Positions 13,392 through 30,422 of a DNA stretch of 61,632 nucleotides are shown one piece after another. The number at the start of each line of letters is the position of its first letter. Within the stretch, counting starts at the first letter, position 1. The position numbers and the translations under genes are program-made. The notes beneath the pieces were generated by a model. That model saw only the letters and a program-made list of their open reading frames with translations, was not told the origin of the DNA and did no database searches. The stretch comes from Alphaproteobacteria bacterium (lineage in GTDB: Bacteria > Pseudomonadota > Alphaproteobacteria > Rs-D84): positions 1 to 61,632 of the forward strand of contig JAWPOG010000029.1 in NCBI GenBank assembly GCA_033345155.1, read 5' to 3'.

Positions 13392-13826
13392 ATGGCAAAA
13401 AAATTTAAAACCGATACCAGCGCAATTGGTATAGCGCACTATATTTTGTTGTTTTTGGTTGTGGCGGGATGTATAGCGCTGGTTGCGTGGATAATGATAA
13501 AAAGCAATAATCAAGATTCATCTGTTAATACAACAAGTATCATTCATGTCAAAAACTCATATCCATGCGTTCAACGCGCGCGCAGCGCAGTAGCGCACAT
13601 GTGGGAATACGACCCTAATGCAGTGCCGCAAAAATACTGGACCATGGCAGAAGACTATATGAATCAGGTGATTACAACGCGAACATATGGCATTTGTCAG
13701 GATGTGGCTTTTGTTTGCAACGTCGGGGAAATCAGACAAGACTGTGACCCTTGTGCGGTACCAAATGCACGAAATTTGGCACAAAGTATTCATACGGCTG
13801 ATATAATCAAGGAATACTGCCAATAA
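13392..13826 (+). CDS. Membrane-anchored or secreted Cys-containing hypothetical protein
   Basis: AAGGA Shine-Dalgarno, N-terminal TM IAHYILLFLVVAGCIALVAWIMI and 6 Cys in the exported part. Confidence 0.5.
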   Translation: MAKKFKTDTSAIGIAHYILLFLVVAGCIALVAWIMIKSNNQDSSVNTTSIIHVKNSYPCVQRARSAVAHMWEYDPNAVPQKYWTMAEDYMNQVITTRTYGICQDVAFVCNVGEIRQDCDPCAVPNARNLAQSIHTADIIKEYCQ

Positions 13827-13856
13827 AAATCCCGCCAAAATGGCGGGTTATTTTAT
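13825..13856. terminator. Bidirectional terminator
   Basis: aaaaat-cccgcc-aaaat-ggcggg-ttatttta, between convergent genes. Confidence 0.65.
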
Positions 13857-14965
13857 CGATTGGTTAACTGTAATTCTATGCGTCGGTTTTGTTGCAGCTC
13901 TGATGGGGTGTTACCTGATGCAACTGGGTACATATCACCAAAACCGCTGGGAACCAAACGATGTTTGGGAACACCCGATTTTACCAATTCGTCCACAACG
14001 GCCGTTGCACGCAACAAGGACAATTCTGTATTATTTTTATACCCAGGCGTACCAAATATAACCTGTTTTTTATCGGTGTGACCATCGACACGAATAATCC
14101 AGTTTATGTCAGCCGGGATTTTTTCTTCCATGTCTTGGATTGCATCTGCAATTAAATGCAATTGCTTTTTACCGTCAGCAGATAATCTGTACGAACCGCT
14201 AGAGAATAAAATATCACTGTTGACGATAAATCTGTCGCCGTCAATCTTGATTGATGAACTGTCGCCCAGTGCAAGCTTTACCGACTTGTAAAATTCAGAC
14301 TGGTATTGGGATACATCTTTAAGTTCCGCGACCTTGTCCGCCAAGGCACGATTTAAACGTGTTGACATTTCAACATATTCAATTTCTTGGTTGCGAGCTT
14401 TTTCTTCGGATGCATCCAGCGCAGATTGTAATTTTGCCAATTGTTCCGCCAGATTTGCGCGTTGAGATTCCATGTCTTCTTGTAATTGTTTGCGTTCCTG
14501 TTCTAATGCGGCCATCTTTTCCTTGTCCAGGGTAGCCTGATTCAGTTGGGTGTTCAGGTTGGCCACCTTTTCTTGCAGTTCGTTGCCATGATTTTGCAGT
14601 TCCAGCACCTTGGCCTCGTACGCAGTGACCAGTTCCGATACACTTAAATCTAGTTCATTTAATTCGTTATTAAGGCTGGCATTGGAACGTTCCAATTCTT
14701 CCAGCTGGTCGCGCGCCAGTATTAACAGTTGTTTGGCCTCTTGCTCGTCCAGGAACATTTGCTCGATGGTTTGTGCCTGCTCGGCATTTGTTGTGCGCAA
14801 TTCTGCCACAGCCTTGGTTCCTGTTGCCTTATTAAAAACACTGGTTGTGGTCCACAAAAACACAAAAACAATCAACAAAAATATTAAAATTATAACCAGA
14901 TTCGAAAATAAATCTACGAAGCCTGGCCATGCGTTTGTTGTTGTGCGATAACGAATATTCATCAT
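13853..14965 (-). CDS. MotB/OmpA-like stator subunit with a long coiled-coil linker
   Basis: N-terminal WPGFVDLFSNLVIILIFLLIV (TM with the conserved Asp as in MotB/TolR/ExbD). About 200 aa of heptad-rich coiled coil. C-terminal OmpA-like peptidoglycan-binding domain (IRVDGHTD...NTELSLLRA...QQNRRIELQL). Confidence 0.75.
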   Translation of the reverse strand: MMNIRYRTTTNAWPGFVDLFSNLVIILIFLLIVFVFLWTTTSVFNKATGTKAVAELRTTNAEQAQTIEQMFLDEQEAKQLLILARDQLEELERSNASLNNELNELDLSVSELVTAYEAKVLELQNHGNELQEKVANLNTQLNQATLDKEKMAALEQERKQLQEDMESQRANLAEQLAKLQSALDASEEKARNQEIEYVEMSTRLNRALADKVAELKDVSQYQSEFYKSVKLALGDSSSIKIDGDRFIVNSDILFSSGSYRLSADGKKQLHLIADAIQDMEEKIPADINWIIRVDGHTDKKQVIFGTPGYKNNTELSLLRATAVVDELVKSGVPKHRLVPSGFGDMYPVASGNTPSELQQNRRIELQLTNR

Positions 14966-14991
14966 TTGTCTGCTCTCTCTCTTGTATTGGT

Positions 14992-15765
14992 TTATATACC
15001 CGAAACTGTTTGTTCCAGTGATTGTACACTTTTTGTTAATTCACGCGTCGCAAGATTTATTTTTGGCAACATCTTTGCCACAGTATCTGTCGCTGTGATG
15101 TGCGCATGCGATGCCAAACATTCTTCCAGTTCATGATATATTGTGTTTTGTGCCGTCTGAACCTGCAACCCCAAAAACCCAACAGCCAAACTGCCCCCCA
15201 GCCCCAACAAAGAACTGGTAAATGCAGTGGCCATGCCCGCCAATGGCCGAGTCAACCCTGACTGCATCGACTGCATAACAGCTTCATCGGAAAAATTCAA
15301 ATTGCCTATTAATTCTGCAAAACCACCAACAGTTAAAATCAATCCCCAAAATGTTCCCAACAGCCCCAGAAATATTAATGTATTTGTAATATAGCGAACA
15401 GATTCACGAGAATCTTCAAAACGATTTATTACCATTTCCATAAAACCGTTCATGGTTGATGCGGATATCCGTTTCGGATTTGATGACAACATTAGTGCCA
15501 CAGGTCGCAATAACCGTGGTGGTAATTCCAACCGATGACGACCAGTCGTAAAGCCATGCAACCATTTATATTCCGGCAACAATCCGAACATTAATACAAA
15601 ACACAAACCAATACCAAATAAAGTAGTGCCAATAATAACACCGTTCAACCAGATGTTCGCAGTCGAAATCGCCATGAAATCCGCCCAAAAAAACAATATA
15701 CCCGCAACCAACAGTGCAGTGAACAAAGTCATTCGGTTAAGTGCGCCATGAAAGTGTTTTGTCAT
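14992..15765 (-). CDS. MotA/TolQ/ExbB-family proton channel protein
   Basis: LIFLGLLGTFWGLILTVGGF and LAGMATAFTSSLLGLGGSLAVGF, the hallmark C-terminal TM pair of the family. GGGGGAA Shine-Dalgarno. Confidence 0.75.
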   Translation of the reverse strand: MTKHFHGALNRMTLFTALLVAGILFFWADFMAISTANIWLNGVIIGTTLFGIGLCFVLMFGLLPEYKWLHGFTTGRHRLELPPRLLRPVALMLSSNPKRISASTMNGFMEMVINRFEDSRESVRYITNTLIFLGLLGTFWGLILTVGGFAELIGNLNFSDEAVMQSMQSGLTRPLAGMATAFTSSLLGLGGSLAVGFLGLQVQTAQNTIYHELEECLASHAHITATDTVAKMLPKINLATRELTKSVQSLEQTVSGI

Positions 15766-15834
15766 ATCTTTATTCCCCCGCTTAGTCTTAGATTAGTAAA
15801 TTTTAACGAATATTGTCAATAGACTTTATTATGC

Positions 15835-17073
15835 TTATTTACACACAGCCACATATGGGGGAAATGAACGCGCCTTATCTATTTCTGATGTACCACAATC
15901 CAAGCAATTGAAACGGCGGTTCTGGGAATGGGACCTGTCAAAAGGAACATTTACTCCGTCAATAAATTCAACCATTTCAAGATATGCACGATTCGGGAAA
16001 CCAAAATAAAATGCACGGGTCGGCCCATCACATTCTGCGACCAGCCCAGGATAACAACGCGCATCAGACAAACGCGCTGGGTCAGGGACGCACGCCGAAA
16101 CACAGGTTTCTTCGTCAACCACCAAACGTTCACAGTCTGTACATGATGTTTGTGGGACACGTAATGTCGCCCCAACCGAACCATAAGGCGCCCCAGATGT
16201 CAAATGTGTGCATTTCTTGGTATTAGCAGAACCAGATGGGTCAGTAACGCATTCCCATACCAATGTGTTATAATTCAACCGAGCCACCATGTTGCTGGGG
16301 CAACTTTTTTCCGGAAACGGATCCAGGCATTCCCAAATACCTTCTACGATAATGGCGGTTTGGTTATCCGCACACAATGGTTTGCGCGATTCATCGGGTA
16401 CACACTCGTACAAATCAGAATCCCAAATCATATCGCCACCACAATCTGTCTGGGGGTTATAGCCTATGCATTGCCAACGACCAAAACGATATGTTTTGGT
16501 ATAACCAACAGGACAAAAAATATCAGGCACCGTCGCCAAATCGTACCCCGTTCCCACATCCGGCATTTCAAACTGAGTCAGATATACAAGTTGACCATCA
16601 ACCAACCCCAGATTCTTGATGATTTCCACCGGAACCTGACGACGCGTGGATGAGCCACCAGACATTATCATCCCCCCGTTTAATATGCCGAATGTGCCAG
16701 CCTCGGAATAATGGGTTTCCAGAATTTCCATCATCGCGTTTTGATTGGATGAATCAATCGGATCGGTCACCGTCACCACATAATTAAATGCTGGCTTTTT
16801 ACTGTTCTGCGCTTCACACTTGGTGACCTTTAATTTACCGTCCAAACAAACAAAATCACTGGTGATGCCGTTTTGTTCTGTGCAGATATCAACAAATTCC
16901 GTGCCGTTAATTTGGGCATTATGCAATGCCGTTGCGCACTGGGCAACAGAACGCAAATCCGAACGCGAAACCGCATATTCTGTGTTATGCTGAACCACAG
17001 TTTGATTTGGGGAATCAATCAAATAATAGCCCACCATGAACAAAGCAACCAAAATCATGATAAAAATATTCAT
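15835..17073 (-). CDS. Cys-rich, N-terminally membrane-anchored periplasmic protein (unknown family)
   Basis: Strong AAGGGGGAA Shine-Dalgarno, TM IFIMILVALFMVGYYLI and more than 30 Cys in C-x(n)-C patterns (WQCIGYNPQTDCGGDMIWDSDLYECVPDESRKPLCADN...). First gene of an operon with the MotA/MotB-like pair. Confidence 0.6.
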   Translation of the reverse strand: MNIFIMILVALFMVGYYLIDSPNQTVVQHNTEYAVSRSDLRSVAQCATALHNAQINGTEFVDICTEQNGITSDFVCLDGKLKVTKCEAQNSKKPAFNYVVTVTDPIDSSNQNAMMEILETHYSEAGTFGILNGGMIMSGGSSTRRQVPVEIIKNLGLVDGQLVYLTQFEMPDVGTGYDLATVPDIFCPVGYTKTYRFGRWQCIGYNPQTDCGGDMIWDSDLYECVPDESRKPLCADNQTAIIVEGIWECLDPFPEKSCPSNMVARLNYNTLVWECVTDPSGSANTKKCTHLTSGAPYGSVGATLRVPQTSCTDCERLVVDEETCVSACVPDPARLSDARCYPGLVAECDGPTRAFYFGFPNRAYLEMVEFIDGVNVPFDRSHSQNRRFNCLDCGTSEIDKARSFPPYVAVCK

Positions 17074-29121: not shown

Positions 29122-29706
29122 TTATTCTGCATCGGATGTTTCAGCAACAACTTCTTCTGTTGCAACTTCGGCGGCTGGCGCTTCTTCGACAACTTCTTCT
29201 TCAACCTTTTTGGTGCCGAATGTCAAAGATTTACCCGCAACCAATGCATCAATTTCGTCCTGGGTCTGAGCGACATAGATCTTAACAGGAACGATAACAT
29301 CTGGATGCAACGCAATTGTTGTATCGAACGCACCAACAGATTTAATTGGCGCACCCAACATAACCTGGGCAGATTCAACAGATACATTTGCAACCTCTTT
29401 CAACATACGCGCAATATCACGTGTTGATACAGAACCATACAACTGACCTGTGTCGCCAGCCTGGCGAATCATGTGCAGTTTTGCATTCTTGACCGCATCA
29501 ACATTGGATTCTGCGTTCTTTTTCGCTGTTTCCTGACGGGCAGTCAGTTCAGCCTTTTTCGCTTCGAACAAAGCAACGTTTTCACGTGTATAACGCATCG
29601 CTTTGCCGTTTGGCAACAGATAGTTGCGCGCATAGCCTGTTTTTACTTCGACTGCGTCGCCGATATTGCCCAATTTTGTAATTTTTTCTGTCAAAATAAC
29701 TTTCAT
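29122..29706 (-). CDS. rplI: 50S ribosomal protein L9 with an acidic C-terminal extension
   Basis: MKVILTEKITKLGNIGDAVEVKTGYARNYLLP. There is an extra tail ...KKVEEEVVEEAPAAEVATEEVVAETSDAE. Confidence 0.9.
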   Translation of the reverse strand: MKVILTEKITKLGNIGDAVEVKTGYARNYLLPNGKAMRYTRENVALFEAKKAELTARQETAKKNAESNVDAVKNAKLHMIRQAGDTGQLYGSVSTRDIARMLKEVANVSVESAQVMLGAPIKSVGAFDTTIALHPDVIVPVKIYVAQTQDEIDALVAGKSLTFGTKKVEEEVVEEAPAAEVATEEVVAETSDAE

Positions 29707-29728
29707 TTTATCTGTCCTTTGTATTCTG

Positions 29729-29851
29729 CCCCCATGGGGAAGTGTCCGACAGCGTCGGACGAAGGGGGTTAAAGTTAGGGTTGAAAACCCAGATTTAGTT
29801 TTAGGGAACCCTCCCCGGCAACGGATGTTGCCACCCCTCCACGGGGAGGGG
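29729..29851. repeat. Cluster of five short GC-rich hairpins inserted between rpsR and rplI
   Basis: ccccatgggg (29730-29739), gtccgac-agc-gtcggac (29744-29760), gggtt-gaa-aaccc (29778-29790), ggcaac-ggat-gttgcc (29817-29832) and cccctcc-acgg-ggagggg (29834-29851). Confidence 0.6.
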
Positions 29852-29856
29852 AATTT

Positions 29857-30084
29857 TTAACCCAAATTGTTACGAACGAACGGCATCAAGCCCAAATGAC
29901 GCGCACGTTTGATGGCGGTTGCCAATGCACGCTGGTCTTTCTGGGAAACACCGCTGATGCGGGATGGCACAATCTTACCACGTTCTGTGATATAGTGCGA
30001 CAATGTCTTGATGTCTTTATAGTCAATAACCTTGCCCTTTAATGGGTTTGATTTTTTACGATAAATTGCTGCACGAACTGCCAT
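29857..30084 (-). CDS. rpsR: 30S ribosomal protein S18
   Basis: [50 protein letters not shown]. Confidence 0.9.
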
Positions 30085-30422
30085 TATTCTGCCTCCTCGG
30101 TATTCTTTTTCATCATGATAGAAGGTGTTGAAGCCAATTCGTCAACACGAACGTTCAAGAAACGGATAACGTCTTCGTCAATGCGGCTGCGACGTTCCAA
30201 TTCTGTAATCTGGGCACCTGGCAATTCAATGTTCAACATGACATAGTGTGCCTTGCGATTTTTACGAATGATGTATGCCAAATTTTTCAAGCCCCAGAAT
30301 TCTGTGGATTTAACATCACCACCCAGTTCTTTGATGATTTCTGTGAATTTAGCCGCTTTTTCTTTAACCTGCGGTTCGGTCAGGTCCTGGCGGAAAACCA
30401 AGACGCTTTCGTAGTAAGCCAT
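30084..30422 (-). CDS. rpsF: 30S ribosomal protein S6
   Basis: [21 protein letters not shown]...[24 protein letters not shown]. Confidence 0.9.

Follow-up and report, generated by a model that had tools for sequence, protein, structure and literature searches.

Does a stator-like gene pair that follows closely on a gene for a cysteine-rich membrane protein, all on one strand, form a three-part machine with it, or do two unrelated units merely stand side by side? The locus that raises this question lies at positions 13853-17073 of a 61,632-nucleotide (nt) stretch of DNA from Alphaproteobacteria bacterium (lineage Rs-D84; GenBank assembly GCA_033345155.1, contig JAWPOG010000029.1, positions 1-61,632), the whole of which is called the window below. 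The source genome (G000) is a metagenome-assembled gut genome of 854 kb in 45 contigs, 83% complete. An initial annotation, made from the letters of the window, had read the locus as an ion-driven motor whose output element could be the cysteine-rich protein. The explanation favored here, held as a whole with a probability of about 0.7, is that the products of genes 2 and 3 form an A/B complex of the MotAB/ExbBD/TolQR/ZorAB superfamily that is driven by ions and anchored to peptidoglycan, that the two genes belong to an alphaproteobacterial family passed on by vertical inheritance, with NCBIfam PRK09039 as its B subunit, and that gene 1 is an unrelated neighbor. The three genes are as follows.

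15835-17073, minus strand: gene 1, an open reading frame (ORF) for a Cys-rich, N-terminally anchored protein of 412 amino acids (aa).
14992-15765, minus strand: gene 2, an ORF for the A subunit (257 aa), a channel protein of the MotA/ExbB/TolQ/ZorA fold with four transmembrane (TM) helices.
13853-14965, minus strand: gene 3, an ORF for the B subunit (370 aa), with a TM helix, a heptad stretch and an OmpA-like peptidoglycan-binding domain, of the PRK09039 type.

The layout as first described, with three minus-strand ORFs separated by 69 nt (gene 1 to A gene) and 26 nt (A gene to B gene), is borne out by the ORF list and by reading the sequence, and the motifs quoted with it (GLLGTFWGL, AFTSSLLGLGGSL and WPGFVDLFSNL) are all present in the proteins. 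The B subunit matches NCBIfam PRK09039/NF006543 with an E-value of 7.2e-76, residues 8-370 aligning to profile positions 12-350 of 350. It also contains a Pfam OmpA domain (1.1e-16). In an 18-sequence family alignment, Asp18 of the WPGFVD segment in the TM helix is invariant, as are the peptidoglycan-binding motifs GHTD, N..L..R and NRRIE of the OmpA domain. The TM helix with its conserved aspartate and the OmpA-like domain had both been recognized at the outset and stand; the coiled coil had been put at about 200 aa, and a heptad scan reduces it to about 165 aa, from around residue 55 to 215, with a single glycine at position 127. As a straight parallel coiled coil, a stalk of 165 residues could reach ~24 nm; alternatively, it could fold back at Gly127.

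The A subunit scores 20.9 bits against Pfam MotA_ExbB, just under the cut-off of 22.9, and its best profile matches are ZorA models. An AlphaFold2 (AF2) model built from a 45-sequence alignment is all-helical (predicted local distance difference test score, pLDDT, 80.4; predicted template-modeling score 0.70), and four TM helices are read from this model together with a hydropathy scan. When the model was compared with the Protein Data Bank (PDB) by Foldseek, all 50 matches listed were A subunits of 5:2 motors, among them ZorA (8vvn and 8qyk), ExbB (5sv0 and 5sv1), TolQ (9ddm and 8odt), PomA (8brd) and MotA (6ykm). The blocks FLGLLGTFWGL and GMxTAFxSSLxGL, in TM3 and TM4, are invariant or nearly so across the family alignments. 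Taken together, motifs, profiles and predicted fold uphold the original assignment of gene 2 as a MotA/TolQ/ExbB-type channel. The cytoplasmic TM2-TM3 loop is short (~60 aa), and the protein stops at residue 257, ~55 aa past TM4, a point beyond which most relatives run on for ~130-150 aa.

The family to which the pair is assigned is large. NF006543 matched in 101 of 151 evenly sampled Alphaproteobacteria in a profile search, and at least 7,998 proteins were retrieved at E<=1e-30 with one family member as query; their source annotations read "peptidoglycan-binding protein" or "chemotaxis protein MotB." Among 40 relatives of the source genome, A and B are adjacent wherever both were found, and at every match in 38 of 41 genomes; the same adjacency holds in 19 of 20 wider loci, drawn mostly from complete genomes. 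In these 20 loci the usual order is efp, a suhB-type inositol monophosphatase gene, in some a gene for a Pro-rich OmpA-like protein, A, B and an ATP-binding cassette (ABC) exporter gene that is often convergent. The efp-suhB genes lie upstream in 15 of the loci and the Pro-rich OmpA gene in 6; A measures ~380 aa and B 320-770 aa. The pair in the window shares with this family the homology over the full length of B, the invariant Asp18 and OmpA motifs, the TM3/TM4 blocks of A, and the placement of A directly upstream of B with a short gap, here 26 nt. It differs in its surroundings: neither efp-suhB nor the Pro-rich OmpA-like third gene is found at this locus, the neighbors being rpsF-rplI in the genus at large and gene 1 here.

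It differs also in the A subunit itself. In most family members, A continues past TM4 into a helical, heptad-rich cytoplasmic tail of ~130-150 aa that ends in a conserved E-I-K-L-L-A-R-T-I-A, and both the tail and this ending are missing here. The tail is typical rather than universal; other families of the order have it, with open frames of mostly 372-400 aa. On the predicted proteins, the pair in the window is thus a tail-less minimal form that has lost the cytoplasmic coiled-coil tail of A and has no Pro-rich OmpA partner. The earlier statement that the coiled coil sits on B and not on A is accordingly true of this genome, as a local and derived state; it does not describe the family, in which A elsewhere carries the tail. 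Pairwise rates of nonsynonymous substitution (dN) are far below those of synonymous substitution (dS) for all three genes of the locus, with ratios of ~0.04-0.18 that are only rough because dS is saturated, and none of the three genes looks decayed.

In basal members of the genus the A subunit is long, at 386-403 aa (G001, at L038:5992-7152; by open-frame length also G002, G007 and G009). In G001, the only basal member that was aligned, the C-terminal extension of ~130 aa (…ILCVSGKNSELSGNIIHFANVDQFKKY…) fails to align with the usual family tail, which suggests that the tail was replaced before it was lost.

Because the best matches of the A subunit are ZorA models, a Zorya-type origin has to be considered, in which the pair would be the remnant or the core of an anti-phage system, a ZorAB without effectors. 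ZorAB is a 5:2 complex with a TM aspartate. The likeness extends to both subunits: A matches PADLOC ZorA1 (4.6e-14, over the TM3-TM4 core) and NCBIfam ZorA_4 (2e-6), its top Foldseek match is ZorA 8vvn_D, B matches ZorB models (ZorB3, 3.2e-19), and B, like the partner in ZorAB (PDB 8QYD, 8VVN), carries a peptidoglycan-binding domain. However, these scores are far under the cut-offs (27 versus 500 bits for ZorA_4), and the ZorA1 match is confined to the TM core, at profile positions 104-225 of 683. The pair has no long ZorA tail, its long coiled coil being periplasmic and located on B, and no ZorC-, ZorD- or ZorE-like gene was noted among its neighbors, which were not individually scanned against PADLOC. 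A housekeeping context and vertical inheritance in 101 of 151 Alphaproteobacteria are also unlike the mobile nature of defense islands, so that a Zorya origin appears very improbable.

The pair also stands apart from the Tol, Ton and flagellar systems, in keeping with the initial annotation. No flagellar, Tol-Pal or TonB genes adjoin the locus. The genome has its own Tol locus, ruvB-ybgC-tolQ-tolR-tolA, on another contig (C8; PF01618 89 bits, PF02472 90.8 bits), and the TolR encoded there is its only ExbD/TolR-type (PF02472) match; the pair is therefore not the genome's sole TolQ/TolR set. The flagellar export protein FHIPEP/FlhA was not found in the 83% complete genome. With a separate tolQRA locus present and FlhA not found, the pair is read as neither Tol nor flagellar. 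Its A subunit is of the same fold class as TolQ and ExbB, with 23% identity to the genome's own TolQ; in contrast to TolQR and ExbBD, its B subunit has an OmpA domain and no PF02472 match, and no conserved third partner is present.

With flagellar MotAB, the pair shares a predicted four-TM layout of A and, in B, the combination of TM aspartate and OmpA-like domain, and some sources label homologs MotA or "chemotaxis protein MotB." That it might be a relic flagellar stator, kept after the flagellum was lost, is nevertheless scarcely credible. The genome has no detected FlhA, the TM2-TM3 loop of A is short, and a stalk of ~165 aa is inserted in B, unlike flagellar MotB. All NCBIfam MotA and MotB models score far under their cut-offs (the best MotB-type model reaches 62.8 bits on B, against 283), and NF006543 had no match at the same threshold in a flagellated control, Caulobacter vibrioides.

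Two observations on related genes were made along the way. The genome's TolQ ORF (C8:23064-23543; L001:1336-1815) is only ~159-166 aa long and is followed by TolR (132 aa) and TolA (265 aa); TolQ of Escherichia coli, at ~230 aa, is longer. In the genome's TolQ, ~45 aa separate the first hydrophobic helix from the conserved block matching TM3 of gene 2 in the alignment. A third MotA_ExbB match, on contig C11 (16.9 bits), was discarded as a spurious frame; the real ORFs of that region (L003; C11:1770-4910) encode secreted or membrane proteins of 219-259 aa with no assigned family.

If genes 2 and 3 are a family module in their own right, what is the status of gene 1? The proposal that all three genes are one machine would make the Cys-rich bitopic protein the output element, its TM helix docking on an A pentamer as TolA and TonB dock on TolQ and ExbB. 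Gene 1 lies on the same strand, 69 nt away and with no terminator between; its N-terminal TM helix is unusually conserved (M1, I3 and F4 invariant, G15 and P22 nearly so, even at 23-26% identity); and gene 1 and the pair are both core to the genus. Gene 1 was found in 22 of 24 other genus genomes. The suggestion that one of the remaining two, G018, has the pair and has lost gene 1 was rejected; the absences in G018 and G005 are read as assembly gaps, since holA is also missing from G018 and lies at a contig end in G005. Since gene 1 and the pair are both core, their co-presence within the genus says nothing either way.

Gene neighborhoods do discriminate. Gene 1 and the pair are adjacent in just 3 of the 23 genus genomes that have both (G000, G006 and G024), which are one another's closest relatives (73% identity in gene 1, 85% in A) and belong to a single young clade; in the other 20, they lie on different contigs. 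In 13-kb regions fetched around gene 1 and the pair, each has its own stable setting: gene 1 is divergent from lptE-holA-map-radC in 8 of 8 genus genomes inspected, and the pair is divergent from rpsF-rplI in 7 of 8 inspected genomes where it stands apart from gene 1, with variable outer neighbors. In the window, rpsF-rplI is found at 29122-30422 (minus strand), 13 kb from the pair. The position of these ancestral neighbors argues for an intrachromosomal rearrangement common also to G006 and G024, and the junction falls within ~20 nt of the gene 1 stop codon. It was most likely this rearrangement, in a common ancestor of G000, G006 and G024, that placed gene 1 upstream of the pair.

The gap that separates gene 1 from the A gene holds several sequence elements.

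15766-15834, minus strand: the 69-nt spacer between gene 1 and the A gene, with a promoter-like element and a ribosome-binding site (RBS).
15819-15814, minus strand: a -35-like element within the spacer, a perfect TTGACA.
Around 15803-15794, minus strand: a conserved AAATTTACTA block, downstream of TTGACA in the spacer.
15779-15773, minus strand: the RBS GGGGGAA, ahead of the A gene in the spacer.

TTGAC and AAATT do not vary ahead of the A gene in any of seven aligned genomes, including those with rpsF as neighbor. Because TTGACA and the AAATTTACTA block also precede A where rpsF adjoins, the pair moved together with its own promoter-like element. Phylogenetic range points in the same direction, the pair occurring in about two thirds of the sampled Alphaproteobacteria, which lack gene 1 homologs, and the gene 1 family comprising just 79 clusters. 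Proteins of up to ~2,400 aa that begin with the gene 1-like domain are encoded in other families of the order, not near the pair, and a tail-less A occurs also where the genes are apart, so that loss of the tail does not track adjacency. The idea of a conserved three-gene unit with the Cys-rich protein as its output therefore failed when the neighborhood was followed across relatives, and a single machine of all three genes is now thought decidedly unlikely. Gene 1 is judged to be an unrelated, order-restricted, Cys-rich membrane-anchored protein outside the A/B module.

By analogy with the solved relatives ZorAB, MotAB, ExbBD and TolQR, we infer that the A/B complex itself is a rotary 5:2 assembly that uses protons; a role in the envelope is inferred as well. 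Five A subunits would probably surround a B dimer. Asp18 of B would face the conserved TM3/TM4 blocks of A, and its protonation and deprotonation would make A rotate around B; the OmpA-like domain, at the end of the ~165-residue coiled-coil stalk, would hold B to the wall. The best guess for the powered function is a role in the envelope or in cell shape. The core has been kept in the genus although the cytoplasmic tail and the OmpA partner are both missing, and for this reason a membrane or periplasmic, envelope-linked role is favored, with low confidence.

Several points weigh against assigning the pair to an ion-driven, PRK09039-type module that is independent of gene 1. The B subunit scores 256 bits on NF006543, below the curated equivalog cut-off of 305, so that B is read as a divergent member of the PRK09039 type. 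The Foldseek E-values for the A model are weak (1.5e-2 or worse), though with probabilities of up to 1.0 and with all listed matches in the same superfamily, and when PDB sequences were searched with a profile made from the A alignment, the outcome was coiled-coil noise only and no stator match; a single-sequence phmmer search also returned no match. No terminator-like site was seen in the 69-nt spacer, so that the co-transcription assumed in the initial annotation, by read-through from gene 1 into the A gene, is possible, though not needed. Finally, loss of the A tail could mean that the complex no longer transmits work as its relatives do.

The last point leads to the alternative that the pair is a static tether or spacer between inner membrane and peptidoglycan, its motor function gone and its output lost with the A tail. 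The absence here of both tail and third partner would fit such a role, as would a B subunit that joins a long stalk to an OmpA domain. Against it, the residues expected to carry the ion flow, Asp18 of B and the TM3/TM4 blocks of A, are still invariant, the genes are under purifying selection, and a simple tether would need no A subunit. This alternative is considered unlikely.

Within the preferred ion-driven reading, a further step can tentatively be taken, although it is more probably wrong than right: the pair may represent a fourth housekeeping ion-driven 5:2 motor of the Alphaproteobacteria, beside Mot, Tol and Ton, whose essential work is periplasmic and depends on the B stalk and its grip on peptidoglycan, not on the A tail. 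The reasoning is that, with both the tail and the OmpA partner gone in this genus, the A/B core with its ion-path residues is still kept under purifying selection, in genomes of <1 Mb with no flagellar export gene detected.

Published work offers one functional lead. No publication that assigns a function tied to the family was found in a literature search on "PRK09039" and the family, and a paper on MotAB evolution (PMC12505986) does not single it out. The nearest lead is the motA/motB pair of Komagataeibacter hansenii, a nonflagellate alphaproteobacterium with adjacent genes for a MotA-like (348 aa) and a MotB-like protein (321 aa, with an OmpA domain), the best matches of the latter being "OmpA/MotB domain" proteins of other alphaproteobacterial orders at 46-48% identity (PMC6570709; review PMC7347698). 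Overexpression of these genes gave elongated cells, fusions to green fluorescent protein were polar, and disruption mutants were viable (PMC6570709; PMC7347698). This pair is a candidate member of the PRK09039-type family; a homology search from a family member, aimed at Acetobacteraceae, retrieved Parvibaculum and Pyruvatibacter instead. The Rgs polar-growth proteins of Sinorhizobium (PMC7327166) were also considered as the identity of the pair and set aside, no MotA/ExbB or OmpA-type member being described there.

More generally, the PRK09039-type A/B pair is among the most widespread stator-like modules without an assigned function, and it is routinely mislabeled as flagellar MotA/MotB. The version in this genome is the smallest so far, the A and B core only, in a reduced gut symbiont genome with Tol and with no flagellar export gene detected. 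Such a minimal form limits the set of parts that the machine may be unable to do without and provides a natural "tail-deletion" comparison for the family. The remaining interest of the locus is in the family and in this natural tail-less form, not in a three-gene machine. The locus also carries a caution, in that adjacency on one strand and short gaps had hinted at such a machine where comparative synteny revealed a young rearrangement junction.

Gene 1 remains of interest as a protein in its own right. It has one N-terminal hydrophobic helix, as first annotated, and 22 cysteines (5.3%), not the more than 30 reported at that time. It has no match in Pfam, NCBIfam or PADLOC, in keeping with the original remark that no family was recognized, and phmmer and hmmsearch found neither a paralog in its own genome nor kinship with other Cys-containing proteins of the window or genome. 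The 79 clusters of its family were found in a profile search of 1.84 billion cluster representatives; most measure 400-520 aa, and several are giants of 767-2705 aa with the gene 1-like domain at the N terminus. Three proteins of this giant kind are encoded in other families of the order, at a distance from the pair. Two of them (L041:4001-11277 in G032 and L043:4701-12092 in G028) exceed 2,400 aa and have no Pfam domain; their first ~340 aa are homologous to gene 1, and their N-terminal helix, M-x-I-F, is near-identical. A gene 1-like open frame in G036 has 879 aa.

An AF2 model of gene 1 (pLDDT 74) starts with a TM helix (residues 2-20); after a break at the conserved Pro22 come a second helix (31-55) and a beta-sheet domain that extends to about residue 170. 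In the Cys-rich region that follows, C-x12-16-[WY]-x-C motifs bracket two-strand hairpins, of which there are at least four. No significant fold match to this model was found in the PDB with Foldseek. Its top three matches are the type IVb minor pilins TcpB and CofB (E-values 0.06-0.08, probability ~0.1), a resemblance that is a lead only. Prepilin features were not found: the protein starts MNIFIMILV, with no upstream in-frame start, no Gly-1 and no Glu5, and its open frame is only 9 codons longer than the ORF. The genome does contain a compact type IVb-pilus-like cluster between lpxC and gyrB (C13:14059-18697), which encodes a PAP_PilO-like protein (421 aa), a coiled-coil secreted protein (223 aa), a T2SSE ATPase (544 aa) and a T2SSF platform protein (356 aa), with no pilin or secretin identified nearby. 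Of 41 relatives across the order, 38 have the ATPase, and because it is so nearly universal, its co-occurrence with gene 1 does not discriminate for or against the pilin idea.

The neighbors of the pair are lpxA and lpxB, a gene for a 144-aa Cys-containing protein, gene 1, and lptE-holA-map-radC. The B gene and the convergent 144-aa gene are separated by one further element.

13831-13847, no strand assigned: a bidirectional terminator-like hairpin, CCCGCCA-loop-TGGCGGG, with T runs on both sides.

The 144-aa protein (13392-13826, plus strand) has an N-terminal TM helix, seven cysteines and no Pfam family. Its gene does not adjoin the pair in G015, G003 or G013; it does so, as in the window, in the relative G006.

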